The notes under the pieces are model-generated. The model saw nothing but the letters and a program-made list of their open reading frames with translations. It ran no database searches and had not been told where the DNA came from. From the IMG/VR virus record IMGVR_UViG_3300028840_003906: 64,000 bases of DNA; one strand, 5' to 3'. This DNA comes from a virus. Positions 3,741 to 63,928 of this stretch are shown here, piece after piece (position 1 is the first letter of the stretch; each line of letters begins with the position of its first letter). A program made the translations under genes and the position numbers.

Positions 3741-3756
3741 GCGAACTTGAGTTCGC
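3741..3756. promoter_or_regulatory. palindrome RCGAACTYRAGTTCGY copy 1
   Basis: GCGAACTTGAGTTCGC, intergenic, 19 nt upstream of a -35 box. Confidence 0.85.
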
Positions 3757-3775
3757 ATTCCCCGAAAAAACGAGT

Positions 3776-3805
3776 TTGACAACAGACGATCCGATGATCT
3801 ATAAA
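3776..3805 (+). promoter_or_regulatory. sigma70-type promoter
   Basis: TTGACA 3776-81, 18-nt spacer, TATAAA 3800-05, upstream of ATG 3837. Confidence 0.7.
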
Positions 3806-3836
3806 TAGTCATCTGAGTTGTTGATGAAAGGTTGAC

Positions 3837-4154
3837 ATGTTTGAGGAGATGGAAGTTGGGGAAATCTTGCGTGACCTGCGCAGTATCAAAGTTCCTCCCA
3901 AGACAAGAGAGTTCATTGACCGGGCACGAGACTATCTCGAAAAGAACGGTGGTCTCTCTGTCGATGTGCAGATGAAGGTGAGGAGGATCTGTCAGCGATA
4001 CCGGGTGCAGATGAAAGAGCTTCATGCTTCGCGAGAGCGTGCGAGGCGTACCAATGGGCTCAAGCGTATGGGGATAACCCGTGCTGAGGCGGAGATGCGA
4101 GTGGAGCAGAGGCGGAAAGAGCAAGAGCTTCTTCGTCAGGACGTAGGATTTTGA
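3837..4154 (+). CDS. hypothetical protein
   Basis: ORF downstream of the promoter. Confidence 0.6.
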   Translation: MFEEMEVGEILRDLRSIKVPPKTREFIDRARDYLEKNGGLSVDVQMKVRRICQRYRVQMKELHASRERARRTNGLKRMGITRAEAEMRVEQRRKEQELLRQDVGF

Positions 4155-4164
4155 GGGGTTTCGG

Positions 4165-4482
4165 ATGTCAAAAACACGTATCGATCAGTCTGTCATTGAT
4201 GCCGTCAAAGAGATCGTGATGATCGTTCGGCACTTCGTAGATCACCCGGAGGATGTTGAGGTCAATGTGCGGCCGGGTCCGTATCGAATCACGGTCGAGC
4301 TATACACGCACGCGCGCGACGTCGGCCAGGTTGTCGGAAGGAATGGGCATGTCGCGTCGTCGCTTCGATCCTTCCTGACGGCGGTTGCTGGGAAGCACAG
4401 AATCAAGGTCGACCTTGACTATGTCACCGAGGAAGATAACGCCAGGAGAGCCCAGAAAAGTGGGCCTATTCGAGTTGACTAA
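4165..4482 (+). CDS. khpA: KhpA-like single KH-domain RNA-binding protein
   Basis: IVRHFVDHPEDVEV...DVGQVVGRNGHVASSLR matches the KhpA pattern, with GxxG loop GRNG. Confidence 0.85.
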   Translation: MSKTRIDQSVIDAVKEIVMIVRHFVDHPEDVEVNVRPGPYRITVELYTHARDVGQVVGRNGHVASSLRSFLTAVAGKHRIKVDLDYVTEEDNARRAQKSGPIRVD

Positions 4483-8210: not shown

Positions 8211-8216
8211 CACCTG

Positions 8217-9227: not shown

Positions 9228-9695
9228 TTGTCCCAGGAGGTATTTGTCATGAAGGTATGCAGAAAGTGTGGAGAAGAGAAGGCCCTTGGTGAATTTTATC
9301 GTCATCCACAGATGAGGGATGGTCGATTGAATGTTTGTAAGGATTGCAAGCGGAAATATCAAAAAGATCGTCCTGCTGATGTGAAGGCTAAGATCGAGAG
9401 GAAAAGGGGTCAGAATCCAGAGAGGAAGAAGAAGGCTTATGAGCGGCTTTGCAGGTGGAGGAAAGAGAATCCAGAAAAAGCAAGAGAGCAGGCTCGTAGG
9501 TATCCAGAAAAGCGAAGGGCGAGGAATATTGTCTCCAGGGCTGTTCGGGATGGAAAGCTGACCAAGATGCAATGTGAAGTTTGTGGATCTGAGAAGGTTC
9601 ACGCCCATCACGAGGACTATTCGAAGCCGTTAGTTGTTGAGTGGCTTTGTGCGAAGTGTCATCGGAAGAGGCACGAGTTGGAGGATGACAGTTGA
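9228..9695 (+). CDS. HNH-type endonuclease-like protein
   Basis: KVCRKCGEEK..EFY...CKDC N-terminus; CEVCG..KVHAHHEDYSKPL.VEWLC.KCH.K.H C-terminus. Confidence 0.8.
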   Translation: MSQEVFVMKVCRKCGEEKALGEFYRHPQMRDGRLNVCKDCKRKYQKDRPADVKAKIERKRGQNPERKKKAYERLCRWRKENPEKAREQARRYPEKRRARNIVSRAVRDGKLTKMQCEVCGSEKVHAHHEDYSKPLVVEWLCAKCHRKRHELEDDS

Positions 9696-11239
9696 AAGTT
9701 CTGATTTCAGGGTTGGCTTGGCTTCCGATGGCGGAGCTTCAGACGCACCATATCCAGAACATCAAGCGTGAGCTTACGATCCAGCCAAAGAAGACCACCG
9801 ATATCCAGACGAAGAAGGATCCGGAGCCCATCTTCCTGTGGGAGGAGGATCGGGAGAACGGCCTGATCGGCGTCCCGAGGAACTACTACGATGGTCGCAA
9901 GGGAGCCGATCATGAAGAGGTGATCGATGTCTCGTACGGTGCCCCGATGGCTGAACAGAAGACGCTGTTTTCTGCGGATGGGCCGTATGCAGAGCAGGAA
10001 GATGCACTCAGGACAATGGCCTATGCTTTTGAGGATCGGAAGTATGGTGGTGTTTTTTTGCGTGCAGATCCAGGATTCGGGAAAACTATTTGTGGAATCG
10101 AGTTTGCCCGAAGGATCGGAAGAAGGACGCTGATTCTGGTTCACAAGGACTTCCTCCTGCGTCAGTGGAGGAAGAGGATTCTTGGCATCATGCCGGACGC
10201 CAAAATCGGAATCATCAAGCAGTCGAAGTGTGAATTTGATCAGCTGGAGAAGACTGGCGAGTCGCCTGACTTTGTGATTGGTATGTTGCAGTCGATTTCC
10301 CGGGATGACGGGTTCAAGTACCCGGATCAGATGTACTCTGCGTTTGGTCTTGTTGTGAGCGACGAGGCCCATCGCGTCGGCGCTGGCAGTTGGGCTGGTA
10401 TTATTCCAAGGTTTCGGGCAGCGTGGCGCCTTGGTCTGACAGCGACTCCTCGTCGAAAGGATGGGGCGCAGGGGGTATTTTTCTCGCACATTTCTCCTGT
10501 CACATATTCAGCTGATACGAAGATGATGAAGCCGAAGCTGCGAAGGATTAGAACGACGTCTACGCTTCGGAGGATCGCCAGGGGGAATTACAAGGTTGCG
10601 GTGTCGAACCTCAACAGCGCTCAGATCATCAACCAGCTGGCGGCCGACGATTTTCGATCTCGGGACATTGTTGATGACATGGTTGAGGCTGTGAAGAATG
10701 GCCGCAAGGTCATGGTTGTGAGCCGGAGGCTGGAGCATCTCAAGAAGATGTCGGATACGTTGAGCGGTATTTTGTTCAACATGAATCTCGGATTTTTCCC
10801 GAGGATCGATTTCTACACGAGTGAATGGTACACGGGCGAGAAGTGGGAGTCCCACAAGATGAGCAAGAGTGGAAAGCTCCTGCATAGGAAGGGAGATCCG
10901 AAGTTCAAGAAGAGGTCGGAGGCAGATCTGGAGAAGGCAGAGTCGGCGAACATCCTGTTCTGCACCTTCCAGATGATGGAGGAGGGGTTGGACGTTGCAT
11001 CTGCGGATGTTCTCGTGATGGCCACTCCCGAGTCCGACATTGAGCAGTTGGTCGGAAGAATTCAGAGGTGGTGCCTTCCGAAGGATGGCAAGTGCGAGAA
11101 GATGTGTCCCTGGCGTGCGGGGCAGTGCAAGGGGAAGCCTCAGCCGATTGTCGTGGATGTGCTCGATGAGCAGATTCCGAGAATGGTCTCGAAGTACAAT
11201 CGAAGGAAGAGGTTCTACAAGAAGATCGGGATGATTTGA
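9692..11239 (+). CDS. superfamily 2 (DEAH-box) helicase
   Basis: ADPGFGKT, SDEAHR, LTATPRRKDG, MMEEGLDV, EQLVGRIQR. Confidence 0.92.
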   Translation: MKVLISGLAWLPMAELQTHHIQNIKRELTIQPKKTTDIQTKKDPEPIFLWEEDRENGLIGVPRNYYDGRKGADHEEVIDVSYGAPMAEQKTLFSADGPYAEQEDALRTMAYAFEDRKYGGVFLRADPGFGKTICGIEFARRIGRRTLILVHKDFLLRQWRKRILGIMPDAKIGIIKQSKCEFDQLEKTGESPDFVIGMLQSISRDDGFKYPDQMYSAFGLVVSDEAHRVGAGSWAGIIPRFRAAWRLGLTATPRRKDGAQGVFFSHISPVTYSADTKMMKPKLRRIRTTSTLRRIARGNYKVAVSNLNSAQIINQLAADDFRSRDIVDDMVEAVKNGRKVMVVSRRLEHLKKMSDTLSGILFNMNLGFFPRIDFYTSEWYTGEKWESHKMSKSGKLLHRKGDPKFKKRSEADLEKAESANILFCTFQMMEEGLDVASADVLVMATPESDIEQLVGRIQRWCLPKDGKCEKMCPWRAGQCKGKPQPIVVDVLDEQIPRMVSKYNRRKRFYKKIGMI

Positions 11240-11246: not shown

Positions 11247-11768
11247 ATGAACAAGGATCGAAAGGCTTACTTCGAGAACTACTACCAGGAGAAGAAGGGG
11301 GAGTTGCTCCAGCGGAGGAATGAGCGGTACAAGAGCGATCCTGAGTATCGCGAGAAGGCCAAGGAGCGCGCGCGTGCATGGAGGGCCAAGAAGAAGCAGC
11401 AGCGGGATGAGGAGCGCGAGAAGCTCAGGGCCGAGGGGAAGCTTGAGAATGAGGGAAAGCGGCCCAGGAAGCCCGTTCTCGTGATTGTGGGGGGGCGTAC
11501 GTTGACGGCGTACCCCATGAAGATTGTGGCAGAGAAGCTGGATCGATCCGTGGGGGCGATCAACTACTGGTCGAAGATTGGGTTGTTGCCGCATACGCCG
11601 ATTCGAACGAAGGGCGGCAACCGGCTGTATACCGAGGGGATGATTCTTGTCATGCAGATGGCGATCTCTCGGCGCGGGAGGATTTCGAAGACCGATACCA
11701 CGTTCCGTGATGAGATAATTGCGGGGTGGGAGGAGTTGGGTATTCCAGTTGACAAAACCGATGAATGA
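11247..11768 (+). CDS. MerR-like helix-turn-helix DNA-binding protein
   Basis: YPMKIVAEKLDRSVGAINYWSKIGLLP..IRTKGGNRLYT. Confidence 0.65.
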   Translation: MNKDRKAYFENYYQEKKGELLQRRNERYKSDPEYREKAKERARAWRAKKKQQRDEEREKLRAEGKLENEGKRPRKPVLVIVGGRTLTAYPMKIVAEKLDRSVGAINYWSKIGLLPHTPIRTKGGNRLYTEGMILVMQMAISRRGRISKTDTTFRDEIIAGWEELGIPVDKTDE

Positions 11769-12401: not shown

Positions 12402-12417
12402 GCGAACTTGAGTTCGC
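12402..12417. promoter_or_regulatory. palindrome copy 2
   Basis: GCGAACTTGAGTTCGC, 2 nt before a tRNA-like gene. Confidence 0.85.
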
Positions 12418-12419
12418 AT

Positions 12420-14259: not shown

Positions 14260-14847
14260 ATGAGTAGAGGAATCATTGTTTTGTTGTGCGTGATCGGAGT
14301 GGTCGTTTTGTTCGGAGGGGGGTATGGGTGTAGCGCGCTCGGGTACCGACAGGACTGCGTGAAAGCAGAGGCCGGGATCCAGGCGCAGTACAAGCAGAAC
14401 CAGAACAACTACGACAACATGTGGAAGCGCTTCAAGGAGGTCGCTGCGGTCCCGAAGATGTACGCCAAGGACCTGAAGGATCTGTGGGACGGCGCCATGA
14501 AGCAGCGGTACCAGGGCGAGGGGAACGGACAGCAGCCGATCTTCAAGTGGATCCAGGAGCACAACCCGCAGCTCGATGCGTCGGTTTACAAGCAGCTGCA
14601 GCGAACCCTGGAGGCTGGGAGGAAGTCCTTCGAGGCCGACCAGAAACAGCTCATCGCGAAGAAGCAGCAGTACGAAGTGGTCCTGAAAGGCAACCGATCT
14701 CTGTTTTTCAACATGTGGTTCGGGTTTCCGAGGATCGATCTCGACGAGTTCGACATCGTGACATCGGACAAGACGGAGGAGGTTTTCAAATCGAAGAAGG
14801 ACAATGGCGTCCTGTTCGGTGACGACGTGAAGCCTGCGGAGAAATGA
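14260..14847 (+). CDS. LemA-like membrane-anchored protein
   Basis: N-terminal TM helix then [20 protein letters not shown]...[21 protein letters not shown] helical bundle. Confidence 0.65.
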
Positions 14848-15323
14848 AGAACCTGACCAACCGACAGGAGGAGGTCCTGAGAGTCATCGTCGAATTCATC
14901 CGCGAGCATATGGCCCCTCCGACGATCCGGGAGATCGGGGACATGGTTGGGATTTCCTCGACGAATGGAGTGATGGACCATCTCAAGGCGCTCCAGAGAA
15001 AGGGTTGGCTCAAAGAGGGGATAGAGGGGCACGCGAAGAGCCGCAAGGTTGCCCTCACGGGGAGGGCGCGGCTCTACCATGGGCTGTTCTTCTCTCGGGA
15101 GGATGTCGGCCTGTACAAGGCAGCTGTGGCCGACTTGTCGGCTCTTTTCGATGCCGGGGCGGATGGTCTCGATTTGTCCGTGTGTACGACGGCAGAGCAC
15201 GGGGCGGATGTTGCCTTGCGGACAGTGAAGAAGATGCTGGAGGCTCACGTAAAAATCGATCCTTTGGAGAAAAAAGAGGTTGACAAACCCATCGAACAGC
15301 AGCATGATACACGGGCGAGTTGA
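14844..15323 (+). CDS. lexA: LexA-type DNA-binding domain protein lacking the S24 peptidase domain
   Basis: [12 protein letters not shown]...[32 protein letters not shown] is a LexA winged HTH; no Ala-Gly cleavage site or Ser/Lys dyad domain visible. Confidence 0.85.
15280..15308 (+). promoter_or_regulatory. promoter for the RNA cluster
   Basis: TTGACA 15280-85, 17 nt, CATGAT 15303-08. Confidence 0.65.
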
Positions 15324-17119: not shown

Positions 17120-17135
17120 GCGAACTTAAGTTCGT
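17120..17135. promoter_or_regulatory. palindrome copy 3
   Basis: GCGAACTTAAGTTCGT, 3 nt before a tRNA-shell RNA. Confidence 0.85.
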
Positions 17136-30758: not shown

Positions 30759-30774
30759 GCGAACTTGAGTTCGT
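30759..30774. promoter_or_regulatory. palindrome copy 5
   Basis: GCGAACTTGAGTTCGT, upstream of the ASCH-like start. Confidence 0.85.
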
Positions 30775-34587: not shown

Positions 34588-34603
34588 GCGAACTCAAGTT
34601 CGT
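34588..34603. promoter_or_regulatory. palindrome copy 6
   Basis: GCGAACTCAAGTTCGT, just after a stop, upstream of the MTase. Confidence 0.85.
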
Positions 34604-40553: not shown

Positions 40554-40569
40554 GCGAACTCAAGTTCGT
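40554..40569. promoter_or_regulatory. palindrome copy 7
   Basis: GCGAACTCAAGTTCGT, inside an ORF. Confidence 0.8.
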
Positions 40570-41284: not shown

Positions 41285-41300
41285 ACGAACTCAAGTTCGC
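41285..41300. promoter_or_regulatory. palindrome copy 8
   Basis: ACGAACTCAAGTTCGC, inside an ORF. Confidence 0.8.
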
Positions 41301-42679: not shown

Positions 42680-42695
42680 GCGAACTCAAGTTCGC
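42680..42695. promoter_or_regulatory. palindrome copy 9
   Basis: GCGAACTCAAGTTCGC, gene junction. Confidence 0.85.
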
Positions 42696-43278: not shown

Positions 43279-43290
43279 TTTTGAAGGAGG

Positions 43291-44557: not shown

Positions 44558-45180
44558 GCTGTGAAAGATGCCTGGCGCGATGCTGGGAGGAGGGTTTCGA
44601 TGATAGTTCAGATGAAAAGGTTTCGAGAGTGCGAGGAGTCTTTGTTGGATCGGGAGGCTTACGAGGATATCTTCGGCCCATGTGATGGGAAGCATTGTGG
44701 TGGTGGACCTTGTCGTGTGCAGAAGGACAAGAGTTCCAGTGTTGAAGATAAGTCGCTCCATGATCTTCTGAGAGAACAGGAGGAGAAACTTGGGTGTCGT
44801 ATTGTGGCAACGTCTGGGGACTTCATCCTGTTCGGCAAGGAGTACCTAGATGAGTGAGAGGTTCTACGAGAAGGTTTGCGAGCTGATAGAGAAGGGCTGG
44901 TACCTTGAGTTCGCCAGGATCGATGATGACATTCAGGTAATAGCGACGTCAGGTAGCACAGAGATTTGTATTTCGGGGGGTGAGACCCGGGGTGTCGTGG
45001 ACGACCTGCACAATCGAATTACACGCCCGGATGCGCATGCTGATGTTGTTGTTGTCTGCCTGAATTGTGGGGGGAACGGAACCATGGGGAGCGATCGTGT
45101 TGAATTGGGGGAGATCAGGGTGTGCCCCATATGCGACGGCGACGGGACGCTCGATATGAAGAAGCACAATCTGGAAGAAG

Positions 45181-45196
45181 ACGAACTCAAGTTCGT
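45181..45196. promoter_or_regulatory. palindrome copy 11
   Basis: ACGAACTCAAGTTCGT, last codons of an ORF. Confidence 0.8.
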
Positions 45197-48594: not shown

Positions 48595-48607
48595 TGGTTG
48601 CTGAAAA

Positions 48608-48623
48608 GCGAACTTGAGTTCGC
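48608..48623. promoter_or_regulatory. palindrome copy 12
   Basis: GCGAACTTGAGTTCGC, after the phosphoesterase stop. Confidence 0.85.
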
Positions 48624-48633
48624 TAGGAGATGG

Positions 48634-51581
48634 TTGATGCTGAAGAGAAGATGTCAGGGTGTCACGAAGAGCTGGCCGTGGAGGGGATCCCAGTGTGCCA
48701 ACGAGGCCAAGATGGAGAAGGACGGTGTCTGGTACTGCCCTGTCCACTACGGCATTGAGGTGGATTCCCCGGGAGAGATGGCGGAGATCAAGGGGAAGAG
48801 CAAGTACAAGGACTGCGATTTCCGTGAGTTTCACGAGGACTGGAGCACCGATTCTGATGTGAAGAATATCGATCTCGTTGGCAAGCGAGTGTTCTCGAAG
48901 ATCGAGCTGAAGTGGGATGAGGGTGAGCGTGTGGAGCCTGGATTTACGGGTGAGATCGTCGAGGAGGATGGTTCTGTCTTCTTCTGGATCGACGGTGAGG
49001 ACAAAAAGGAGTGTGCGTGGCGCCTCCGTCTGGATCCTGATGCGGAGGCTCACTTTGGGATCTCGGAGGACGAGCGATGACGGTACCTACTTTCAAGGGG
49101 TTGCGGGGGAACATGGAGTTCTGGATTGTTCTCTCGTTGATATTCTTCGGTGTCCTCGGCTGGGTGGGGCATGAGTTCAGCTCTGAGTATGATGCTCAGA
49201 GGTGTGTCGCGGGGGAGAACCTGCTGGGGTTCAAGTTGCCTGGTTACAAGTATGATGAGGACGGTACCTGCTGGAGCTGTTGCGGCACGACACGGGCCAT
49301 GAGCGATTCTGCTCTTATGGTTTGCGATAGGAAACGCCAGGAAGCCTTCGATCCGGAGTGGTACGAGATGGAGAGAGAGTGCAGGGGTGGAAAATGAGAC
49401 GACCGCCGATGAGGATTGAGCCGAAGTGCCTGCGCGACCACACGATGGTCCGATCGAAGCGATTTTTGTGCCGTGGGGTGTTGAACAGGAGGTCGATGAT
49501 TCTTTCAGATTGTCGGCTTTGTGCAATGTACTCTCTGGCCCAGCGTCGCGACAGGGGGCTTGCGAAGCTTGGACATTTCGTTGAGGACAGTGAGCCCAGG
49601 AAGCACTTCTGGTGCTGGTCGGATACGGCGATCGAGCACGATTGCCTGGGTGGTTTCGTTGCGTGCCATGGGTGCAAGCGCAAGGGGGATCGGCTGGAGA
49701 TGGAGATTCAGCGCGATGGGTTTCTCAAGTTTATGCTGCGGAAGTTCCGTGGTTTCATGATGGAGGGGTAGGGATGAAAATCGAGGAGATGCGGAGAGAG
49801 TTTGATACGTGGGTTTCGTCTCATTGTGGGGCTCTGATGAGTTGCCCGGCGTCGAAGTATTGTGGTAGTGACAGTTGCTTCGAGGCTTTCGAGAGGTGGC
49901 AGGCGACAGCTGAAGATGCGGGACTTCGGCTGCAGAGCGCCTGTGCGGACTGTGGTGCCCCGTTCTTCCCAGGTTCCAGCTTCTGTGCGAAGTGCGGGGC
50001 CAAGCGGGAGAAGGCGGCCCAGGGGAGCCCTGAGTGCGGTTGTGGGTGCGGTTGCCATATACTTGATCCGGTTGTGTCCAATGAGGAGACGATGGAGGAG
50101 ATGTATTTGCCTGGAGTGAAGGGCAAGAAGTGCCTCGATTATCACAAGCTCGGAGAGCATGCGTGTAATTCGTGCTTCTACAACGGGCGTTGTGAGTACC
50201 TGAAAGGGGAGGGAGAGAGATGAGTCCAGAAGAACAGAGGGAAATCGAAGAGAACGTGGTGGCCAAAGACACGTTTGTCACGGACACGAGCTGTGAGGGG
50301 ATCGTGGATGCCGCCAACCGGCTGAGGTACATTGCTGCCAGCCTGGAGGGTGTCGGCATGGATTCTCTGTCTGAGAGGATCTGGATGATCATCGAGGACC
50401 TCGACGCCGGGGTCAAGAAGGTCCGGGATGCTGTCAGTGAAGAGATCGGCCGACAGGTGAAAAGAACCAGCAGCATGTCGAAGACGGTGTTCGACTCTGT
50501 TTTGGCTGGCATAGAGCTTCAGTCTCGTGCGTATGAGGATGGAGTCGAATCCGGAAAGGATCAGGTCTGATGGAGTGGTTGCAAGCCTGGGGTGCGCCAT
50601 TGATCATCGGAAGTGTGTTTACGTTCTTTGGGATCACGGTGGTGGGGGTCGGTGTTCATGTGATGCTTCCGATATTTGATAGCAGGATTGGTCGTCCAGA
50701 TCCGGTCCGTGTCACAGTTGGCATCGTCACATTCTTGGTTGGAATATGGGCAACAGCGCTCATGGGGATTCGTGGGATTTGCATCGCGATTGAGCTGATG
50801 AACTGTTGACAAAACAGATTTTCTAGAGTAACTTGCCTCGCGAAAGATGTTCAGCTAGATGCTGGGAGAAGGAATTTTCAAATGTCGAAGTGGGACAAGC
50901 CGAAGAAGGTCACGGATGCGGAGGTGTCGTTTTCTTTCAGGGACATCCGGGGGAAGATTCCTGCCTGGGAGAGCTTGTCGAGCAAGTACTGGAACGGCAC
51001 GAGGGCGTCCGAGCGTTTGATTGGTAAAGTGTTCTATGAGGGGCTGCCCAATGGCACGGAGTTCCATCCCCGGGAGGGGGTTGATCCGGGTGACGGCACG
51101 CGGTATATCGCTGCCATCATGAGGAGCTTCCAGCCGAGGCACGAACACAAGTTCGCTGCGGCGTCTTTCCTCCTGGAGAAGTGGTTCGAGAAGGTGGTTG
51201 TTGATGGCGTCGAGTACGTCATGGACGAACCTATTGAGGTGAAAGATGGATGAGAGTCTGGTCAGGAATGTGATCGATTGGCAGGGTGAGTACAACGAAT
51301 TCCGTGAGGGTAAGTACTTGCTCTATGCCGCGCAGGTCTACGCGGAGAGCGATGGGACCTACACCGTCACGGTGTGGTACGACGAGGAGAAGGTCTTCGG
51401 TCTCGAAGAGGTGTCTTCCGCGCATATTGGCGAGATGATCTGCGAGATGGCGGTCGAGATCCACGAGCGGCGCCTCTGGGAGAAGAGGTCTGCGGAGGTG
51501 AGACGCGAGGTGGAAGAGCGTGTTGCCGGGATCGAGGACGCCTACGAGAAGTCGAAGAAGGGGAATATTCAGTTTCCCTGA
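48634..51581 (+). other. array of short hypothetical ORFs (to 49080, 49077-49397, 49394-49771, 49774-50223, 50220-50570, 50570-50809, 50882-51253, 51246-51581)
   Basis: Coupled + strand ORFs. Confidence 0.55.
50806..50834 (+). promoter_or_regulatory. sigma70-type promoter (candidate)
   Basis: TTGACA 50806-11 (overlaps stop), 17 nt, TAACTT. Confidence 0.5.
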
Positions 51582-51594
51582 CAGGGGTTGATGA

Positions 51595-53409: not shown

Positions 53410-53425
53410 ACGAACTCAAGTTCGC
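53410..53425. promoter_or_regulatory. palindrome copy 13
   Basis: ACGAACTCAAGTTCGC, between a stop and TTGACA. Confidence 0.85.
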
Positions 53426-53430
53426 AGAGG

Positions 53431-53459
53431 TTGACAAAACGGGGTTCGGAAGGTAAAAC
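53431..53459 (+). promoter_or_regulatory. sigma70-type promoter next to a palindrome copy
   Basis: TTGACA 53431-36, 17 nt, TAAAAC; palindrome ends 5 nt upstream. Confidence 0.6.
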
Positions 53460-55963: not shown

Positions 55964-55979
55964 GCGAACTTGAGTTCGC
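55964..55979. promoter_or_regulatory. palindrome copy 14
   Basis: GCGAACTTGAGTTCGC, contains a stop codon. Confidence 0.85.
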
Positions 55980-55997
55980 TTGGAAAGGGGTGCCGTG

Positions 55998-57835
55998 ATG
56001 AGTAAAGAGGCAGAGTTGCTTGGTTGGTTGGAGCGGAATGGTTGGACGTCGCTCTCCGAGTGCGAGAGGAGAGGTTTTCGGCACGAGGATCTCCTGCAGG
56101 CGTACGGAGATCGGCTTGTCAGGAGAGATGGGTTCGGCGAGGATGGAGCGGTGTGTGTCATTCCGGTTCTGGGCACAGATGATGCCATTGGGTTCGCCAA
56201 GAAATGTGGAATGGAGCCAGTCCCTGGGCGAGAGTATTTTGCTTGTGTCCAGGTTTCCATTCGGAACGAGGACTGGGTGGACATATTCGGGGATCCGTTT
56301 AGGTCAGAAAACAGGGAGATGTGGAAGGAGCGTAGCTCTTGTTTGGGGGTCGTGTTGACGAGGGGCGAAGATGGTATGCGGATTGATCACAATCCATTCA
56401 TGCAGATGATTCAGGGGGGAGTTGGGATTGACGGGATGCTATGGAAGACAGGTGACCCGATGCCGTGGCGCGAGAAGTGCTTCGAGCCGAATGTGCATGT
56501 GGAGAAGGATCCGGATGATCCTGGCAAGCTCATGTGCCATGTCAGCATTAGCGCTGGGGAGATGACAGGCGATTTGGCTCATGCGACGATTGGGCCGGTT
56601 GACAGGATTGAGAAGGTGCATCCGGTGGATCATATGGAGATCAGTTTCTCGGTTGATAATTCCACCGGTGATGATCTGAGGAAGATGGCCAGGCTGTTCG
56701 GGATGTATGAGTATCATACCTCGGTGGTATACATCGACTCCGAGACGGGTAGGGCGGTCGAGAAGCACGGACCGGACGGGGATGGCTGGGAGGAGCAGTT
56801 CGATCCATACTTGGATGCGATCCCGAAGCGGATAGATGCGGTTCATGAGGAGCTGGTTGGATGCTTTGGCCGTGAGAAGGTCTGGTACCGACAGTATCGG
56901 CGTGTGAGCCCGAAGAGTCAGCGATACGGGCACGAGTCCCTGTTGAGGGAAGAATGCCGAAACACGGGCACTCCTGCGGGCGTGTGGCCGGAGAAGCATC
57001 CTGGTGGGGCTGTGAAGTACAGGAAGGAGGACTGATCGATGAAGGATATGAATGGTTCAATTGGGTCTTTGTACCTCGAAGAACTCAAGTTCATCAATGT
57101 GCACATGGACAGGAACTTGATCTTTGAGTTCGCGAAGAAGGATGGAATTGCGAACGACAGGAGGGAGCTGGGGTTCGAGTCGAGGTGTGTCACGAGCGCG
57201 TACTACGCCAAGGACAAGGGGCAGACATTCCTGTCCCGTCTGGTGAAGGAAGACCCTGATGACGGTAAGCTGTTGGAGTTTAAGATCAGGGAGGGGCGTG
57301 GTGAGGTCGGTGGGTTCATGGGGAACATGAAGGAGGGATCTGCTGCCATTAGCAAGGTGAAGGGCGGTGAGGAGGGGCAGGATTACGAGGTTTTCGTGCG
57401 AGGCGTATTCGTAGTTCACAGTGCGCAGCTGGCCCATATTCATCTCGGAGAGGTGGCAGGTGACCTTGGTCTGAAGTGCTGCGATTCAACTATGGAGTTC
57501 ATCGGGGAAGCTGGGGGTGGTGCTATCTTCGGGTGTCTGAAGTGTGGAAAGAGCAAAACGGTAGAGGTGAAATGATGGAAGACATGTACAATGCGTTTGT
57601 AAGAGAGAACGAGTGGGATGGAGATACCATGACACACTCCATGTACTTGGAGATGTTCTTTGAGTGGCTCATGAAGAAGACATCGAAGCCGTCTGAAGGG
57701 TTGAGGACTCTTCGTATGCATGCCGGTGGGGCGAGATCTGATTTCGACAACTACCGGAGGGGGCTGAACGAGGAGCAAGACCGGGTTATGGAGCTGGAGG
57801 AGTTTGTGTCGCACGTCTCCGATACGGAGTGTTGA
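55998..57835 (+). other. hypothetical ORFs (55998-57035, 57039-57575, 57572-57835)
   Basis: Coupled + strand ORFs. Confidence 0.55.
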
Positions 57836-57905
57836 TAAACCTGAAGTTTGATGCGATATAGCTCCGGCAGATACTGGCCGAGGATGGCCGGAAAAATGGG
57901 ATGAA

Positions 57906-58538
57906 ATGAAGAAGTATTCAATCAGTGATGTGGATGATGTCTTTGGGGGAGACGACTATGTAAACCGGGGGAAGATTGCCGTGGCGTTTGGCGGCCGGGA
58001 CCTGACTGCTTGTGAGATCCTGGATCTGGACATTTCGGACCAGGACAAGCTGCATATCACGCTTGGAATCGGCGAGTTGACGGACAGGGAGGTTCAGGAA
58101 ATATCCTTCAGGTTCGCAGAGAGGGTCCTCCCGGAGTTCGAGTCTCCCATGGGCGATGACACATTGAGGAAGTGTCTGCGCACGGCACGTGAATACCTGG
58201 AGGGCGACATCGTCATCGGGGTGCTGGACAAAGAAACTCGGGCGCTGGAGAAGAGGGCGGATGATCTCCAGGGCGAGATCGCCGAAGGTGGCGGTGATGA
58301 TATTCGAAAAGAGATCATTCATAGCTGCATGTGGGCGGTGATCTGGGCGATGTACGCCTGGAATGTCGAGGCAGGGCCGCAGTCGATGTACGCGTGCAAT
58401 GCTTCGCATTCTGCGTGCTGGGTGAAGAGCTGGCATGCTGATGACGACGAGTTCGAGCGCCTTTTCGGCGAGGAGGAGAAGGTTCACGTTCAGATCGTCC
58501 GTGAGTACCTGCATTGGAGGGAGGCGAAAGTTGGGTGA
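57906..58538 (+). CDS. hypothetical protein with Imm5-like helical segment
   Basis: FAERVLPEFE...DDTLRKCLRTAREYLEG. Confidence 0.45.
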   Translation: MKKYSISDVDDVFGGDDYVNRGKIAVAFGGRDLTACEILDLDISDQDKLHITLGIGELTDREVQEISFRFAERVLPEFESPMGDDTLRKCLRTAREYLEGDIVIGVLDKETRALEKRADDLQGEIAEGGGDDIRKEIIHSCMWAVIWAMYAWNVEAGPQSMYACNASHSACWVKSWHADDDEFERLFGEEEKVHVQIVREYLHWREAKVG

Positions 58539-59613
58539 CAAGAAGAATATGAGCGCTTCGAAGATGAACGATCGGAGGGCGTTGTACGTGGTGTTGTCGA
58601 TCACGTTCTGGTTCGCGGCTATGATGGTGTTGGGGTACATGTACTTCTTTTCGAAGGAGATCAGCACTCCGATGTTTTGGTTTCTCCTGCTGATCCTGGC
58701 GAACTTCTCCATGGAGTCGAGGTCGACGGTGCATGGGATGAACTTACTCAATCGGTCGATCAATTCTCAGCTTTGGATCCTCAGGAGATCGATGGGAATG
58801 GAGGAGAAGGATGGGTGATGCACCGAGGCCGAAAAAGGACGACGGGACCTTTTGGTGTTCCTTTGACGAGTGTCCGTGTTGGGACGGGTATTGCTCGGTT
58901 ACGCACTACAGGTGCAAGCGTAGCGATGATCCTGTCCTGTGTGGAGGGATTGCTGTACACTTCGAGAAGCAGATCGAGGCGTATCAGATGCATCTCCGCG
59001 ACCGGCTACTCGTGGACGCTACGCCTGATGAGGAACTCCCACTCCGAATCCTGGAGGCGTACATCGATCACAGCGAGACGACAGACAACCTGCTCGGGCT
59101 TCCCCCGGAGAACCCTCTGATTCAGAGGATGGAGGAGGCGCGCAAGGAGCGGAATGTGATCCTGAGTAATGCGATGACGTGTGTTCGGTTTTTCGAGAAG
59201 GACAAGTCATGAAGAAGAAAACCAATAAGGTTGTGAAGGATCTCCCTGATGGGTTTGTGGAGATTTTTGCTTTGGAGAACGGATGGATCGGGACCGTGGA
59301 GAACGTTGCATTCAGCAGGGAGGATCAGCTTGCTGTTGCGGACATCGGTGGAGGTGAATGGACGGTGCTTCCTGTCGGGCGCGACATCGGCGGGTACAGC
59401 CCGTTTGGAGCGATAGGTGGGTACAACATAAGCGCGCCGGTTGTTGGCCGTTTGCTGGCCCTTCTTGGCTTCTGGAGCGAGGAGGAGGCTGACTCTTTTG
59501 GAGTTTGGTACTGGGAGGAGACCAGACGGCGTACGGCGAAGTACGAAATCAACAGGCACAAGGAAGCTTTGGAGAGAGCCGGTTACACGGTATCCAAGAA
59601 GAAGTCCTCCTGA
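58535..59613 (+). other. hypothetical ORFs (58535-58818 two-TM, 58811-59212, 59209-59613)
   Basis: Coupled + strand ORFs. Confidence 0.5.
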
Positions 59614-59668
59614 TTTTCCTGTTGAAAAAATCTCTTTTTTGATGTAAATTCTCAGCCCTGTTTGATCG

Positions 59669-60172
59669 ATGGGGAGATCCCAAAGGAGGATGGTTTTGAG
59701 CGATATCGTGAGCGTTATCATGGTTGGAATGTTGGGATTGGGGGTGATTTGGGCATTTTGGGGGATGTTCAGGGACAGGAAAGAGCCGGTTGGGGGCCTG
59801 ATTTATGTGGCTTCTCCGTTCACCAGTCCGAGCAAGGAAGTCGAGCGTGCGCGGTACCAGGATGTCGTTGACGCGTGCGCGCGAATGTTCGAGGACGGCT
59901 TCCATGTCATGTCTCCGATTGCACACTGCTATCCGATGTTTGAGCGTGGGAACATGCCAGGCGACTTTGAGTTCTGGAGGGCGTACAACTACGCCGTTCT
60001 CTCCAGGTGCGAGGAGCTGTGGGTCCTGACGATAGATGGATGGAAAGATTCCAAAGGTGTCCAGGGGGAGATCGAGTTCGCGAGGAAACGAGGGATCCCG
60101 ATCGGTTACGTAATATGCGATGTAGGTGGAGTTTGGGAGCTGAGTGATGAAGATGGAAGAAGAACTGCGTAG
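59669..60172 (+). CDS. DUF1937 family protein (nucleoside deoxyribosyltransferase-like fold) with N-terminal TM
   Basis: IYVASPF, MSPIAH, W...N...LSRCEELWVL..DGW..SKGV.GEIEFA...GIP. Confidence 0.85.
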   Translation: MGRSQRRMVLSDIVSVIMVGMLGLGVIWAFWGMFRDRKEPVGGLIYVASPFTSPSKEVERARYQDVVDACARMFEDGFHVMSPIAHCYPMFERGNMPGDFEFWRAYNYAVLSRCEELWVLTIDGWKDSKGVQGEIEFARKRGIPIGYVICDVGGVWELSDEDGRRTA

Positions 60173-62377
60173 GCTGAAGGAAGAGAACGAGAAGCTGAAA
60201 GGGGCCGCTATTGAGTCCGTGTTCGCGGACTTGATCCTGAATGTGGCGGCGAGGCACCCGGGGGCGAGAATTTGGATCGATGTCCCGAGTGATAGCTTCA
60301 AGGCGATCGTCCTTCATGTTGGCGTTCAGAGGGACGGGAAGATTTACAGGGCTCAGAGGGCCGTGACGGCTGAAGAGATTGGTGAATGTAGGGTTAACAT
60401 CTGGGCTGATACCGTCGATCAGGTTTGCGAGGATCTTGAGGTGGAGATCAATAGGGCGAACTCAAGTTCGTCAAACGGAAGTGATGGAGGACTAAGGGAA
60501 TGATCATCTACGGTGGAACGAGGGAGCAGATTGAGCAGCAGCTGGAGTGCGATCACGATTGGCACGGACCCTGTATGGACGACAAGTACCGTTACATGAA
60601 GTGCGGGAAGTGCTTCTGCGTGGATCGGGACATCATGGTGAACGACGAGAAGGGTGCCCTGGAGCATATCCCGGCCACGGCTAGAGAGGTCGAGGAGACG
60701 CACGATCTTATTCATGAGGTTGAGCAGCTACGCGCGCGCAGGAAGGAGACCTTGGTTCTGAACGAGAAGCTCCGCGAGGAGCGGTATGAGTTGCTGGCGG
60801 AGATTGATCGACAACTCGGAACGTTCAATGCGGAGAAGATGACCAAGCAATTGAAGGCCCCTGCCGAGAATGCTCTCTACGATCTGATTGACGAGAACCT
60901 GAGAAAAGATGCGGTCATCGAGGAGCTGAACAAGCATGCCGTGAATGCATCGATCCGGAGTTGGGTTGATGAGAATTGGCAGCCGTGTCCGAAGTGCAAC
61001 ATGCGTGGTTTCACGTTCGGTATTCGGTGCCAGGAGTGCAGCGGCATCGGGCGTGTGAAGGGTGAACCTGTTCCTGTTGATTGATCCAGAAGGGCGGTGG
61101 TGCCGTGACAGATGTCCGCTCTCAGAGGATTTGGAAATGGGCAAGCTACAAGGTTAAGAGCGGCAAATGCAGGTTCTTGGGCTGTGAAAATGATGAGGTT
61201 GCAGAAACAGCTGAGGGTGACATGTGCCTGGATCACTACATTGGGCTTCCGGCCTGTGAGGAGTGCGGTGGTCCTGCATGCGGATCAATGGAACCGATCC
61301 GGTGCATGTCTTGCCAGGATATGAGCGAGACAACCCGGGCACTCACTGCAACGTTCTCTTCGCTGGAGAACGAGGGTGGGTTGTTGGATTCAGCGTATGG
61401 GGTGCGGAAGGAGATCCGGCCCTTTGAGAAAAGGATAGGACGTGCAGAGTTGGTTTCGTGGGCGAAAGCGATCATGCGGAGATCTGAAGCAGGATGAGGT
61501 GGAGAATTGAGCGAGAAGAGGTCGGAGCGGGTGCGGGAGTGGGCGCGATACAAGGTGAGGATGGGTAAGTGCCGGGAGCAGTCTTGTAATGTGGAGATCG
61601 TTTCAGAGACGCCAGAGGGGCGCCTGTGCCTCGAACACTACTGCAGGCTCCCGTCATGCGTGGAGTGTGGAAAGGCGGCCTCAGGAGGGGCTCGTCTTTG
61701 CGCTGAGTGCGAGAAGAAGAGGGATGAAGCGCTTGGGATGACATCCTCTTTGAGCTACCACGAGGAGGTGTCCGGGCATGATACGATTGGAATGGGTGGC
61801 ATGAATCAGATGCGAAGGAGAATGTGGGGAACGAACCCCGATGGGTCGAAGAAGAAAAAGAAAGCGAGTTGAAATATGGCACGGGCTATTGTTGGCGCTG
61901 CTGATGCGATTGCACAGAAGGACGAGTCCGATCGTAAGATGAGGCAGGCGGTTTTGGATGCGTTGAAGGAGGAGTTTCCGTGGGGGTGCAGGGTCATGTC
62001 GGAAGATATGACTGCAACGGTTGTGGGTTGGTATGCAGATCGTCTTGTCGTTCTGGATGGTGACAATGGGCTCGGGAGTATTCAGGTGACTCAGCATGAT
62101 GGGCGTCTGAGTGTCGCGAAGCTGGATGATGGAGAGTGAGATGCTCTACAGAAACAAGACGTGCATCGTTTGTCGGGAGAGGGGCACCTGGGAGGACTTT
62201 GGGTCGACGTGCCCATCTTGCAGGCGGGAAGCCGAAGAAGAGAAGAAGAGGGAGCACCTTGAGGCGCTAAAGAAGCTCTCGGTTGAGGAGCGTCTCGCGA
62301 GGATCGAGGAGCAGTTGTACGACCGTCCGTGGTCGAAGATGGGCTGGAGACCAGAGCCAAGATTGGGTGGACAATGA
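60144..62377 (+). other. hypothetical ORFs (60144-60503, 60500-61084, 61105-61497, 61507-61872, 61876-62139, 62126-62377)
   Basis: Coupled + strand ORFs; 61105 and 61507 are paralogs. Confidence 0.55.
60456..60471. promoter_or_regulatory. palindrome copy 15
   Basis: GCGAACTCAAGTTCGT, about 30 nt before the next start. Confidence 0.8.
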
Positions 62378-63342
62378 GCAAGCATCACATCATTTATCAC
62401 AACGACGCGGATGGGTACGCTTCGGCTGCGATTGCGTATCGTTTCCTGACAATGGAGAAGGATAACAGGGTTCCCGAGGATGACGTTGTCTTTCATCCGT
62501 TCACCTATGGTATGCGGTTCCCTGGCGAGATCGACAGAATGAGAGATCTTGTCTACATACTCGACTTCAGTTTTCAGCCGGAGGGATTGATGGTGGAATT
62601 GGCTGAAGATTTTGGTGGTCGATTGGTTTGGATCGATCATCATCAGACGAGCTTGGATGCAGAAGAGGAGCACCATGAGCTGGGGAGGGTTCCTGGGATG
62701 CGACGTGTAGTCTGGTCGGAGTCTGTGCCGGATCCGATTTCTGGGTGCGAATTGGCGTGGGCTCACTTTTTCATGTTGGACAATCCTCCGTTCGTAATCA
62801 GGATGATTGGGGACTGGGATGTCTGGAGGTGGAAGGAAAAGGATGAGTTGACGCAGAAGTATGTGCAGGGGCTGCAGTATTACTTGAAGGCGTCTGGTGC
62901 GGACCCCAAGGATGATCATGCTCTTGGCATGTGGCTCGGGATGATGGAGTTGACGAAAACTGACATTGTTCGATCTTGTTGTGAGCCAGGGATCAAAGTG
63001 ATGGAGTACCAGAAGCGGGAATGGCGCAAGATGATGGGGGAGAGATCCTTCGAGGCAACGTTTGCCGGGATGAATGCGATCGTTGTGAACGAGAAGGGGA
63101 ACTCCACCATGTTCGACGGGTTCTACGATCCGGAGAAGCACACCGTCATGGTCGCATTCCATATGACCGGGCTCAATGTGACCGTTTCGATGTACACGGA
63201 GAAGACCGAGGATCTTCGCCTTGGAAGGATTGCGAAATCACTCGGGGAGAAGGCTGGGAGCAAGTCCGGTGGTGGACATGCTGGCGCTGCTGGGTTCCAG
63301 TGCGACCTTCAGTTTTTTGAGAAGATCTGCCAGGTGAAATAG
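62374..63342 (+). CDS. DHH/DHHA1 family phosphoesterase
   Basis: YHNDADG, YILDFS, WIDHHQT, SGCELAW, IGDWD, GGGHAGAAGF. Confidence 0.92.
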   Translation: MSKHHIIYHNDADGYASAAIAYRFLTMEKDNRVPEDDVVFHPFTYGMRFPGEIDRMRDLVYILDFSFQPEGLMVELAEDFGGRLVWIDHHQTSLDAEEEHHELGRVPGMRRVVWSESVPDPISGCELAWAHFFMLDNPPFVIRMIGDWDVWRWKEKDELTQKYVQGLQYYLKASGADPKDDHALGMWLGMMELTKTDIVRSCCEPGIKVMEYQKREWRKMMGERSFEATFAGMNAIVVNEKGNSTMFDGFYDPEKHTVMVAFHMTGLNVTVSMYTEKTEDLRLGRIAKSLGEKAGSKSGGGHAGAAGFQCDLQFFEKICQVK

Positions 63343-63601
63343 GAGGGTGAAATGGGAAGGGGATATTCGGACGAGAAGGGCTCGTATCCTGGGTTGGCGG
63401 GGTGGATGGAATGGCTTTTTTGGAGGAAGCTATGTGTTCGGCCAGACTGGGGGTGTGAGTGGGATGGGCAGAAGTGGTTCGAATTCCTCCGGATCAGGAG
63501 CCTTGTCGGGTGGTGGTACAACTTCACCGGAAGGATCGCGTCCAAGTTTCACAAGATGAATTGTCCGAAGTGCGCGGGCCGTTGAGGCCCAGGAGGAAGA
63601 G

Positions 63602-63922
63602 ATGTATTTTTGTGGTGAGTACGTTTTCGACAAGACGCATTGGTTTGTGGAGATCCCGGCCCTGGGAGTGCAGAGCCAGGGGTTCACTCCCGAGGATGCG
63701 ATGGTCATGGTGTGCGATGCCGTGATGAACCTGGTGAACGAGGACGGGTTCGTGGTCGAGGCGTACCGCGATCCGAGCCTGGGTGAAAGGAACTTCCGGA
63801 TCAAGGCGAACAATCCGGACCTCTTGGCGTTGTTCCATACGTTCAGGGAGTCGATCGGCAATCCGGATGTGCCGGTGCGGCGCTGGGAAGATGTGAAGGC
63901 TGAGTTTTTTGAGCGAACTTGA
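63602..63922 (+). CDS. HicB-like antitoxin domain protein
   Basis: WFVEIPALGVQSQGFTPEDAMVMVCDAV. Confidence 0.65.
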   Translation: MYFCGEYVFDKTHWFVEIPALGVQSQGFTPEDAMVMVCDAVMNLVNEDGFVVEAYRDPSLGERNFRIKANNPDLLALFHTFRESIGNPDVPVRRWEDVKAEFFERT

Positions 63923-63928
63923 GTTCGC
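63913..63928. promoter_or_regulatory. palindrome copy 16
   Basis: GCGAACTTGAGTTCGC, contains the HicB-like stop codon. Confidence 0.85.

Follow-up and report, generated by a model that had tools for sequence, protein, structure and literature searches.

The stoperators of Cluster A mycobacteriophages are the sites of the L5/Bxb1 immunity repressor; each is asymmetric and points along the direction of transcription, a monomer reads it, and the phages that carry it are temperate. The OB operators of KorB (plasmid RK2) and the dispersed palindromes of the ParB/Noc type are read by dimers. Among published systems, the array described here most resembles a 17-bp repeat with dyad symmetry, 5'-TGTTCGGNNNCCGAACA, in Cluster O mycobacteriophages (Cresawn et al. 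2015, PMC4351075). More than 30 copies of this repeat are found throughout each genome, mostly intergenic but with approximately one-third in genes, and in each copy inverted arms of 7 bp, which do not vary, flank a short asymmetric centre with no orientation bias; there is no link to promoters, and the phages are not obviously temperate (PMC4351075). Its authors predicted a dimeric DNA-binding protein and gave the function as unknown (PMC4351075).

The phage under study (G000) is a large uncultured T4-like phage whose record of 124,752 bp is only 68% complete, and the window, i.e. the whole 64,000-nt stretch that was analysed, comprises bases 32120–96119 of that record. As with stoperators, which are bound by one phage protein, tens of near-identical sites lie in short intergenic gaps across the phage genome; however, the sites described here are dyad-symmetric and unoriented, and no tyrosine integrase was found in the complete relatives. 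With the KorB/OB and ParB/Noc systems the array shares one exact palindrome at at least 12 dispersed places on a mobile replicon, but in this lineage ParB_N occurs only as part of a DNA methyltransferase fusion, and no such domain was found in G007, which nevertheless has 33 sites. The likeness to the Cluster O repeat extends to copy number, dispersal, mostly intergenic placement, invariant arms, an unoriented centre, the lack of a promoter link, a predicted dimeric binder and phages that are not obviously temperate. The two differ in that the Cluster O repeat belongs to Mycobacterium siphoviruses and has a 3-bp centre, whereas the present array belongs to an uncultured T4-like myovirus lineage and has a centre of 2 bp; dialects among relatives, even spacing and a candidate reader are unreported for Cluster O (PMC4351075).

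A dispersed 16-base palindrome

The 16-base two-fold-symmetric site RCGAACTYRAGTTCGY occurs in 16 exact copies in the window, compared with 0 in 100 dinucleotide-preserving shuffles, and all 16 copies listed in an earlier note on this DNA were recovered. The two near-copies that it reported also exist, but at 51142 and 57080 rather than at 51141 and 57081. The whole record (124.8 kb) holds 27 exact copies, i.e. approximately one site per 4.5 kb. The sites in the window, none of which is assigned a strand, are as follows, with their counterparts in relatives.

3741..3756, dyad site GCGAACTTGAGTTCGC: intergenic; a promoter-like sequence, TTGACA-N17-TATAAA, lies 20 nt downstream; G002 and G004 have a site with a CC centre behind the orthologous upstream gene
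12402..12417, dyad site: intergenic; a tRNA gene (12419/12420) starts after a one-base gap; orthologous junction has a site in G001 and G002 and a one-mismatch remnant in G004
17120..17135, dyad site with the rare TA centre: begins 1 nt past a stop codon
26550..26565, dyad site: its TGA is the stop of the Holliday-junction-resolvase-like gene 26134–26559; orthologous junction in G002 and G004 also has a site
30759..30774, dyad site: core gene 30801–31184 follows after 26 nt; counterparts in G001, in G002 with a flipped centre and in G004 with a GG centre
34588..34603, dyad site: 1 nt past a stop, upstream of the ParB_N-methyltransferase gene; kept in G001 and G002, centre flipped
40554..40569, dyad site with CA centre: within an ORF
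41285..41300, dyad site with CA centre: within an ORF
42680..42695, dyad site: begins 1 nt past a stop codon
43263..43278, dyad site: stop 2 nt before, next start 18 nt after
45181..45196, dyad site: within the final 30 nt of an ORF, next start 15 nt on
48608..48623, dyad site: 13 nt past a stop and 13 nt ahead of the next start
51142..51155, near-copy CGAACACAAGTTCG: one mismatch
53410..53425, dyad site: its first base is the last of a TGA stop; TTGACA follows after 5 nt
55964..55979, dyad site: supplies the TGA stop of the upstream gene
57080..57093, near-copy AGAACTCAAGTTCA: two mismatches, a number expected by chance
60456..60471, dyad site: near the 3' end of an ORF, next start 28 nt on
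63913..63928, dyad site: supplies a TGA stop, next start 13 nt on; counterpart after the orthologous upstream gene in G001

Crude gene calling places 12 of the 16 copies in the window between genes, in agreement with the approximately 12 junction copies counted previously, whereas those at 45181 and 60456 lie inside the final ~45 nt of an ORF and those at 40554 and 41285 are deep within ORFs. The earlier observations that three copies supply a TGA stop (26550, 55964 and 63913) and that TTGACA follows two others (3741 and 53410) were reproduced. Two copies had also been said to abut RNA genes, which is true of 12402, with its tRNA one base on, but no RNA gene adjoining 17120 could be confirmed with ARAGORN or Rfam. 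Genome-wide, 70% of the G000 sites are intergenic, compared with 17% for random placement, and across seven genomes this share is 43–77% against 16–20%. The spacing of the sites is more even than expected, with a CV of 0.49–0.74 where ~0.95 is expected (P<=0.03 in seven of eight genomes), and the genome-organising role that the earlier note had left open fits this unusual evenness. Selection on this palindrome as a DNA site is strong and acts throughout the genome.

Dialects of the site and the LexA-like gene

Conservation at orthologous junctions, a check proposed in the earlier note, was examined directly: the exact site is kept in 24 of 50 junction comparisons with a flanking-gene homologue, at flanking-protein identities of only ~40–80%. 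Sites persist at such junctions between phages with a protein identity of just ~50%. In addition, a dyad in at least three copies was found in 14 of 36 loci of the lineage and in 0 of 34 unrelated phage loci. Six relatives without the LexA-like gene (83–100% complete) each carry 13–41 copies of the same or a sister palindrome, the forms being CGAACT-SS-AGTTCG, CGAACC-YR-GGTTCG, GCGMACACGTGTKCGC, GCGCATGCGCATGCGC and TCCGCCCGTACGGGCGGA. Such differences are seen in relatives down to 39% major-capsid identity, and the dialects have a common frame, GCG-N-A-N-(N4)-N-T-N-CGC. The array is a property of the whole uncultured T4-like lineage, each sublineage having its own dialect, and CGAAC-N4-GTTCG, the lookalike of the Gram-positive LexA box, is just one of these dialects.

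Phages with differing dialects range from 35 to 70% in G+C, and such very different contents probably reflect different hosts. This would suit sites that are read by a non-LexA host protein, or short recombination or selfish elements spreading and mediating module exchange in the manner of PeSL cassettes, which occur in T4-type phages and have a promoter attached. The higher density of sites in the ORFan-rich 40–64 kb region, and the 7 of 21 site-bearing junctions with a conserved gene upstream and a non-conserved gene downstream, are also consistent with such an origin. However, the dialects track the capsid phylogeny of the phages, with the GCG...A...T...CGC frame common across hosts, and those seven junctions, together with three of the reverse kind, six between conserved genes and five between non-conserved genes, are near the background of 40, 40, 83 and 80 respectively. 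Furthermore, the sites, unlike PeSLs, have no attached promoter, 16 bases are few for homologous exchange, and orthologous sites persist in conserved regions. We consider both forms of this explanation very unlikely.

The window also encodes the following protein.

14844..15323, plus strand: LexA DNA-binding domain protein, 159 aa, without an S24 protease domain

As the earlier note had described, this is a LexA domain lacking the protease: Pfam LexA_DNA_bind matches residues 1–57 (E 1.7e-20), no Pfam match to Peptidase_S24 was found in the ORF, solved LexA structures match residues 1–63 only, and the C-terminal part does not align to the S24 domain of full-length LexA proteins. CGAAC-N4-GTTCG is the core consensus of the Gram-positive/actinobacterial LexA (Cheo) box, and the G000-type site has precisely this core. 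With a genuine LexA DNA-binding domain in the same genome, the sites might be LexA-type operators, bound by the phage domain and/or the host LexA in a RecA-insensitive or SOS-coupled network. The gene is found in G000, G001 and G002 only, and all three show the YR-centre form of the site; in addition, the degenerate G[A/C]AC half-site of G006 is reminiscent of Myxococcus-type boxes, whose second position varies.

Against this, the gene is accessory. It occupies three different, non-syntenic positions, is absent from the complete G004, whose genome retains the flanking genes (67–73% identity), and was not detected in G006–G010 (E<=1), all of which have palindrome arrays; the arrays are independent of the LexA-like gene. 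Neither GCGCATGCGCATGCGC nor TCCGCCCGTACGGGCGGA, two of the dialects, resembles a LexA box. The nearest bacterial LexA proteins, those of Myxococcota, have the recognition helix ISSTNGVNDHLKAL, nearly identical to that of the phage protein, but upstream of their own genes are CTGNAC-N4-GTTCAG boxes and not GCGAAC-TNNA-GTTCGC. The window has no excess of boxes of this Myxococcus type (11, where 18 are expected), and in 401 Myxococcota genomes the phage site does not form a regulon-sized family, with a maximum of seven per genome. No promoter enrichment was seen at the sites, only 2 of 27 being near a −35-like hexamer, and, as noted previously, the lexA-like gene, with an ATG that overlaps the stop of the gene before it, has no copy upstream, so that there is no autoregulation through such a site. 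Because relatives without the gene also have such sites, in dialects of their own, the likeness to LexA/SOS boxes is probably coincidental, and the LexA-like protein is probably not the general reader of the sites, although in this phage specifically its domain may bind the shared GAAC-N4-GTTC core. The earlier interpretation is supported as regards a selected genome-wide site kept at orthologous junctions, but not as regards a LexA operator network, RecA*-insensitive or coupled to host SOS, which we regard as unlikely.

Half-sites, centres and predicted RNA hairpins

In transcripts across the sites, a hairpin with a 6-bp stem and a 4-nt loop is predicted (−6.7 to −10.5 kcal/mol), and the palindromes might act as intercistronic RNA hairpins, i.e. 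as mRNA 3'-end stabilizers, processing sites or weak terminators. Analogues are the intercistronic hairpins of T4, the RNase III sites of T7 and bacterial REP elements. Many copies lie exactly between a stop codon and the next Shine–Dalgarno sequence, approximately 10 of 27 ending 12–18 nt before the start codon, the arms change symmetrically between lineages, and a T run follows approximately one-quarter of the copies. However, such placement is what a 16-bp site must show where the median intergenic gap is 20 nt, as in G000; a U-tract consensus after the sites is absent; and within 40000–59999 of the window none of seven copies was called a terminator and terminator-like sites were not enriched. 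Nor would a purely structural element need 14 invariant bases per genome.

Where it could be tested, no pairing constraint was found. The 39 sites of G006, GCG[A/C]ACACGTGT[T/G]CGC, combine their half-sites at random (A..T 10, C..G 9, A..G 11 and C..T 9), and 20 of them would have a mid-stem mismatch if paired. The R and Y flanks likewise vary independently, giving A..C in 23 of 99 cases, which is the chance rate, and hybrid half-site combinations are also present in G007, G008 and Vibrio phage PG28. The half-sites are independent of each other, and their variation in G006 argues for a dimeric protein reading dsDNA and not for an RNA hairpin; the sequences point to a site that is read as two half-sites on dsDNA by such a dimer. 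Hairpins as the basis of the array are, in our judgement, quite unlikely, although they may, from the folding predictions, add an effect at the RNA level. The asymmetric centre shows no orientation bias in G000–G002 (TG 36, CA 32 and TA 5) and its orientation flips between orthologous sites. Simple independent reading of half-sites fails to explain why the centre is strictly TG/CA (or GG/CC), which counts against the docking-site reading.

A MerR-like candidate reader

Two adjacent genes of the window bear on the reader of the sites.

9692..11239, plus strand: SF2 (ResIII/DEAD) helicase, directly upstream of the MerR-like gene
11247..11768, plus strand: core MerR-like winged-helix protein P0103, 173 aa, with an N-terminal helical hairpin

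P0103 matches Pfam MerR (E 8.4e-6, with scores slightly under the curated cut-offs) and the PHROG 'transcriptional regulator', and each of the 11 searched relatives that could contain the gene has it or a homologue. No other predicted sequence-specific binder of dsDNA was present in all relatives, and the small core proteins that were compared with Pfam or PHROGs yielded no further DNA-binding fold. The cultured Vibrio phage vB_VpS_PG28 has the same pair of helicase and P0103-homologue genes (pairwise E 1e-18) together with 31 evenly spaced dyad sites of its own, TTGCA[A/G]TTAA[T/C]TGCAA. The AlphaFold model of P0103 (pLDDT 87) matches DNA-bound structures of the MerR family at marginal Foldseek E-values, among them the RacA–DNA complex 5i44, a weak match (E 0.027). 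RacA of Bacillus subtilis, which has a MerR-type winged helix and a coiled coil, binds ~25 dispersed GC-rich 14-bp inverted repeats (ram) and organizes the chromosome. It is, however, a cellular sporulation protein with a C-terminal coiled coil, whereas P0103 is a candidate phage DNA binder with an N-terminal helical hairpin. Dialect groups differ in the recognition helix of the MerR-like protein, a difference that is confounded with phylogeny, and G010 shares the G000 motif yet has a rather different recognition helix, which counts against P0103. As many core proteins have no recognizable fold and the G000 record is 68% complete, the true reader could be another protein, or one of the host.

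We consider it somewhat probable that the palindromes form a genome-wide docking array for a phage-encoded dimer, with the MerR-like protein as its likeliest reader. From the evidence above we infer that the reader is phage-encoded, that it is this protein, and what its binding would do. The palindromes would be dsDNA docking sites for a two-fold-symmetric protein, evenly spaced and mostly in short gaps between genes, and the most likely reader would be the core winged-helix protein encoded after the SF2 helicase. Rather than serving SOS-linked promoter control, the bound sites would probably act either as transcription roadblocks or as marks or organizing points of the phage chromosome when it is replicated, recombined or handled in ways related to packaging.

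Dyad sites of the phage genome

All 16 copies of the palindrome RCGAACTYRAGTTCGY that the earlier note had located in the window were recovered exactly where it had placed them, and none arose in 100 dinucleotide-preserving shuffles. Allowing up to two mismatches added only four further places in the window, approximately the chance expectation, so that copies are either exact or absent. The palindrome for which we propose binding, termed the dyad site, is GCGAACTTGAGTTCGC; the full IMG/VR record of this phage (G000; 124,752 bp, 68% complete by CheckV), of which the window spans bases 32120-96119, contains 27 copies, all with invariant arms and a TG, CA or TA centre, and all 27 can be read as CGAAC-TNNA-GTTCG. 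Every long ORF of G000 lies on the G-rich + strand and all genes are co-oriented, whereas the centre reads TG in 14 sites and CA in 12. The features of the window that are discussed below are as follows.

Features of the window
4165-4482, small KH-domain (KhpA/B-like) protein, kept across the lineage
11247-11768, P0103, MerR-like winged-helix protein of 173 aa
12419-12493, tRNA gene directly following a dyad site
14844-15323, LexA-like ORF of 159 aa
15644-16009, phage-encoded tmRNA (Rfam, 117 bits; ARAGORN tag peptide VENYEPMQAAA)
26134-26559 and 32666-33196, Holliday-junction-resolvase-like genes that differ from each other, both part of the core of the lineage

The placement at gene junctions that had been described from the sequence holds: by our own gene calls, 70% of the G000 sites are intergenic, compared with 17% for random placement, and many occupy the gap from a stop codon to the next ribosome-binding site. 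Four sites in G000 supply a TGA stop, including the three already recognized within the window; the stop codon of the first resolvase-like gene is supplied in this way by the site at its end. As the median intergenic gap is 20 nt, however, such tight placement is unavoidable for any 16-bp non-coding site, and we do not read it as evidence of a translational role. The sites are spread genome-wide without a link to promoters, and a comparison of their junctions with module boundaries gave no clear enrichment. Their spacing is more even than random in seven of eight genomes (CV values of 0.49-0.74 against approximately 0.95; P ≤ 0.03), a pattern more in keeping with an array that covers the genome than with a collection of promoter operators. 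The tRNA gene that follows a dyad site (Rfam tRNA, 40.3 bits) was labelled 'tRNA-???' by ARAGORN, with the four-base anticodon ccta, and may be a suppressor tRNA or one that reads frameshifts.

The major capsid protein of G000 is of the Gp23 type (Pfam E value of 1.7e-70), and genes for T4 baseplate and gp19 tail-tube proteins are present in its relatives, indicating a T4-like myovirus, though a remote one. Protein searches for cultured relatives revealed only distant ones: the major capsid protein is approximately 28-37% identical to that of T4-like phages and the RecA-like protein approximately 26-35% identical, and a megablast search of 10 kb against cultured phages gave no match. A second KH protein is conserved in the related genome G004 (125110-125679), and the KH proteins extend the set of RNA-centred genes that these phages carry. 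Past the end of the window, a 762-aa SNF2-like helicase ORF (G000:C1:103814-106102) has weak, sub-cut-off matches to Hint (E value of 5e-4) and LAGLIDADG, and may be interrupted by an intein.

Conservation and dialects of the array

The exact 16-mer was found in several large IMG/VR contigs, in which copies were counted by the 14-bp core.

Relatives carrying the exact 16-mer
G001, 157 kb with terminal repeats, 26 copies
G002, 176 kb, 20 copies
G003, partial, 17 copies, with identities and site offsets that match those of G001
G005, partial, 10 copies, with identities and site offsets that match those of G001
G004, 195 kb and complete, six copies with a YR centre and 20 of CGAACT-GG/CC-AGTTCG

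These genomes share only about one-third of their genes with G000, at approximately 50% protein identity. Despite this divergence, about half of the junctions with a homologous flanking gene keep the site exactly, in many cases with an unchanged offset, so the conservation at orthologous junctions on which the earlier note had staked its reading was indeed found, and it amounts to strong purifying selection. In G004, the centre has changed in concert from TG/CA to GG/CC at 20 of 26 sites (L105-L114), at positions orthologous to those of G000.

Further relatives were gathered by means of the capsid protein, and each sublineage proved to have its own repeated GC-rich palindrome.

Palindromes of other sublineages (whole-genome counts where a number is given)
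G007, 33 copies of CGAACC-YR-GGTTCG
G006, 39-41 copies of GCG[A/C]ACACGTGT[T/G]CGC
G008, approximately 28-42 copies of GCGYAYGCGCRTRCGC, of which the commonest form is GCGCATGCGCATGCGC
G009, capsid protein 39% identical, 13 copies of TCCGCCCGTACGGGCGGA
Low-GC relatives, CGAACTCGAGTTCG

The frame common to these dialects is GCG-N-A-N-(N4)-N-T-N-CGC. CGAAC-N4-GTTCG is thus one dialect of several, and several of the others are unlike any LexA box. When a ParB_N-methyltransferase was used as a marker of the lineage, a single-protein query gave no match, and the contigs of 20-60 kb matched by an alignment query came for the most part from unrelated phages and were reused as a negative control: in stretches of 15-21 kb, a dyad in at least three copies was present at 14 of 36 lineage loci, but at none of 34 loci from unrelated phages. 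In G009 (L395-L403), we also observed two further repeated motifs that are not palindromic, GTCTCGGAATTTCAA (approximately 16 copies) and CCGAGCATCTTTTCA (approximately 12 copies), which may be promoters.

The pattern of variation within the palindromes bears on whether they are read as DNA or as RNA. The purine and pyrimidine flanking the core vary independently, with the A..C combination in 23 of 99 cases, exactly the chance rate, and the variable position of the G006 half-site combines at random (A..T 10, C..G 9, A..G 11 and C..T 9), which means that half of these sites (20 of 39) would be mismatched in mid-stem in any hairpin. Hybrid combinations of half-sites are also present in G007 and G008. 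In addition, the asymmetric centre shows no orientation bias in G000-G002 (TG 36, CA 32 and TA 5), although the genes are all co-oriented, and its orientation flips between orthologous sites. An RNA hairpin, terminator or REP-like element, in which pairing of the arms should be conserved, is therefore unlikely; the G006 arms fail to pair as often as independence predicts. A search for a U-tract found no enrichment of T at +15 to +20 across 116 sites, a terminator scan of window positions 40000-59999 called none of the seven copies there, and pairing beyond the 16 bp was not in excess, save for a weak signal at offset 3. The transcript hairpins predicted at the sites are modest (-7 to -10 kcal/mol), and some side effect on RNA from such a structure is conceivable. 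The favoured reading, drawn from these sequence comparisons, is a symmetric reader of double-stranded DNA that would recognize two independent half-sites, although the centre is nearly always a TG/CA step (GG/CC in G004), whereas TA or CG would also be expected from independent half-sites.

The LexA-like protein and its relation to the sites

The earlier note had proposed, as one of its alternatives, that a protease-less LexA-like protein runs a genome-wide operator network through these sites. The protein itself is as described: ORF 14844-15323 encodes a genuine LexA DNA-binding domain (Pfam LexA match to residues 1-57, E value of 1.7e-20) and lacks the S24 part, PDB LexA structures align only to residues 1-63, and the protein does not align to the S24 domain that full-length LexA proteins carry. 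LexA boxes of the type in question have the consensus GAAC-N4-GTTC, and all 27 copies fit it. The nearest relatives of the phage protein are LexA proteins from Myxococcota, Bradymonadia included, with a nearly identical recognition helix (ISSTNGVNDHLKAL in Myxococcota LexA compared with the 14-residue phage helix). Upstream of those Myxococcota lexA genes, however, the boxes are of the Myxococcus type, CTGNAC-N4-GTTCAG(TA), which have the GNAC/GTTC core in common with the phage palindrome but differ in the flanks. Boxes of the Myxococcus type were not enriched within the window, and no enrichment of the phage motif was seen among the 5 + 401 Myxococcota genomes searched for a host regulon.

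The network itself failed on promoters of controlled genes, on cognate co-occurrence and on an autoregulatory site. TTGACA lies downstream of only two of the 27 sites, at differing distances; a strict search for TTGACW-N16-18-TAnnnT gave four matches genome-wide, none beside a site; in a consensus scan of window positions 40-60 kb, neither promoters nor terminators were enriched; and the flanks of the sites have neither conservation nor a promoter consensus. LexA_DNA_bind (PF01726) was found in G000, G001 and G002 only, in three different, non-syntenic genomic contexts, and was absent at E ≤ 1 from six genomes that each bear an array, namely the complete G004 and the 40-91% complete G006-G010. 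G004 retains the two genes that precede the lexA-like gene in G000 (67-73% identity), but not the lexA-like gene. As had been noted from the sequence, no dyad site lies just upstream of this gene, which is coupled in translation to the ORF before it; the nearest sites are at a distance of 2.4 kb on the upstream side and 1.8 kb on the downstream side. These data suggest that the LexA likeness of the sites is mostly a coincidence of sequence. The protein with the LexA domain more probably derives from a host and is accessory, and host SOS boxes may be its targets. As a caution, even a perfect fit to the consensus of a famous operator, found beside a DNA-binding domain of the corresponding family, may be coincidental.

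A MerR-like candidate reader

Among the small lineage-conserved proteins scanned against Pfam and PHROGs, P0103 is the only one with a sequence-specific double-stranded-DNA-binding fold, the hits for the others being to KH, SWIM, resolvase, AAA+ and structural proteins. It is annotated as 'transcriptional regulator' by PHROGs and matches Pfam MerR (E value of 8.4e-6) and MerR_1 (E value of 5.5e-4) just under both cut-offs. In its predicted structure (pLDDT 87), a helical hairpin at the N terminus precedes a winged helix, and the best PDB matches of this model are DNA-bound members of the MerR family (NmlR, CueR, SoxR, MtaN, RacA, BldC and GlnR). Homologues were found in G001, G002, G004, G006-G010, G012 and G013, with a weak match in G014, so that no relative open to this test lacks P0103 or a homologue, and the gene always follows that of an SF2 helicase. 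The recognition helix varies between dialect groups, which is weak evidence, being confounded with phylogeny. A ParB-type protein was rejected as the general reader: the one ParB_N domain of this lineage forms part of a methyltransferase fusion, and G007 gave no ParB_N match.

Wider relatives of P0103 in IMG/VR came from the same lineage only, so that the sole cross-lineage test is the Vibrio phage pair. Among cultured phages, homologues occur only in Vibrio siphoviruses, e.g. the lytic siphovirus vB_VpS_PG28 (MT735630.2), whose homologue QWS69827.1 (pairwise E value of 1e-18) is again encoded after a helicase gene. The 82.7-kb PG28 genome contains 31 copies of TTGCA[A/G]TTAA[T/C]TGCAA, also written TTGCARTTAAYTGCAA, with hybrid half-sites among them and with very even spacing (mean gap of 2.6 kb, CV of 0.43, P < 0.001). 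This gene pair with its own array is one independent co-occurrence, circumstantial and not proof. Taken from sequence, the best reading is that the dyad sites are double-stranded DNA docking sites for a phage dimer, with P0103 as the candidate reader; what binding would bring about is inferred.

Stoperators are asymmetric, oriented with transcription and belong to temperate phages, whereas the present sites are symmetric and unoriented. In a search confined to tyrosine integrases, none was found in G000, G001, G002, G004 or G007, and the gene set is T4-like; the absence of such an integrase from the complete relatives leaves an immunity-repressor model with little support. The closest published case is that of Cluster O mycobacteriophages, in which a 17-bp dyad repeat occurs in >30 copies (PMC4351075). 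Its arms are invariant, its asymmetric centre shows no bias in orientation, and most copies are intergenic, with no link to promoters; the repeat has no known function or reader. The present array is of the same kind in a different lineage, sharing the tens of copies, invariant inverted arms, short variable unoriented centre and genome-wide spread. For a MerR-type reader, the best mechanistic analogy is RacA/ram of B. subtilis. A predicted MerR-type winged helix with a coiled coil is encoded in every genome with an array that could be tested.

Speculatively, and with the balance in our estimate rather against it, the sites could belong to a phage 'chromosome-marking' system of a MerR-like protein and an SF2 helicase. 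A MerR-like winged-helix/coiled-coil protein, encoded with the helicase in a replication-recombination module, would dock in dimeric form on co-evolving palindromes that make up a lattice of even spacing, and this docking system would be common to cultured Vibrio siphoviruses and a T4-like lineage that is uncultured. In G000, G001 and G002, a captured LexA DNA-binding domain that cannot be cleaved may use the same lattice, since the dialect of these genomes is by chance a GAAC-N4-GTTC box.

Independent combination of half-sites offers new, sequence-only evidence for reading as double-stranded DNA, and one testable candidate reader can now be named, in contrast with the Cluster O repeats. As PG28 is cultured and has the same gene pair with a 31-site lattice, it opens the system to bench work. 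These phages show that an array of this kind can be a stable trait of a deep lineage while its sequence drifts in symmetric 'dialects'.
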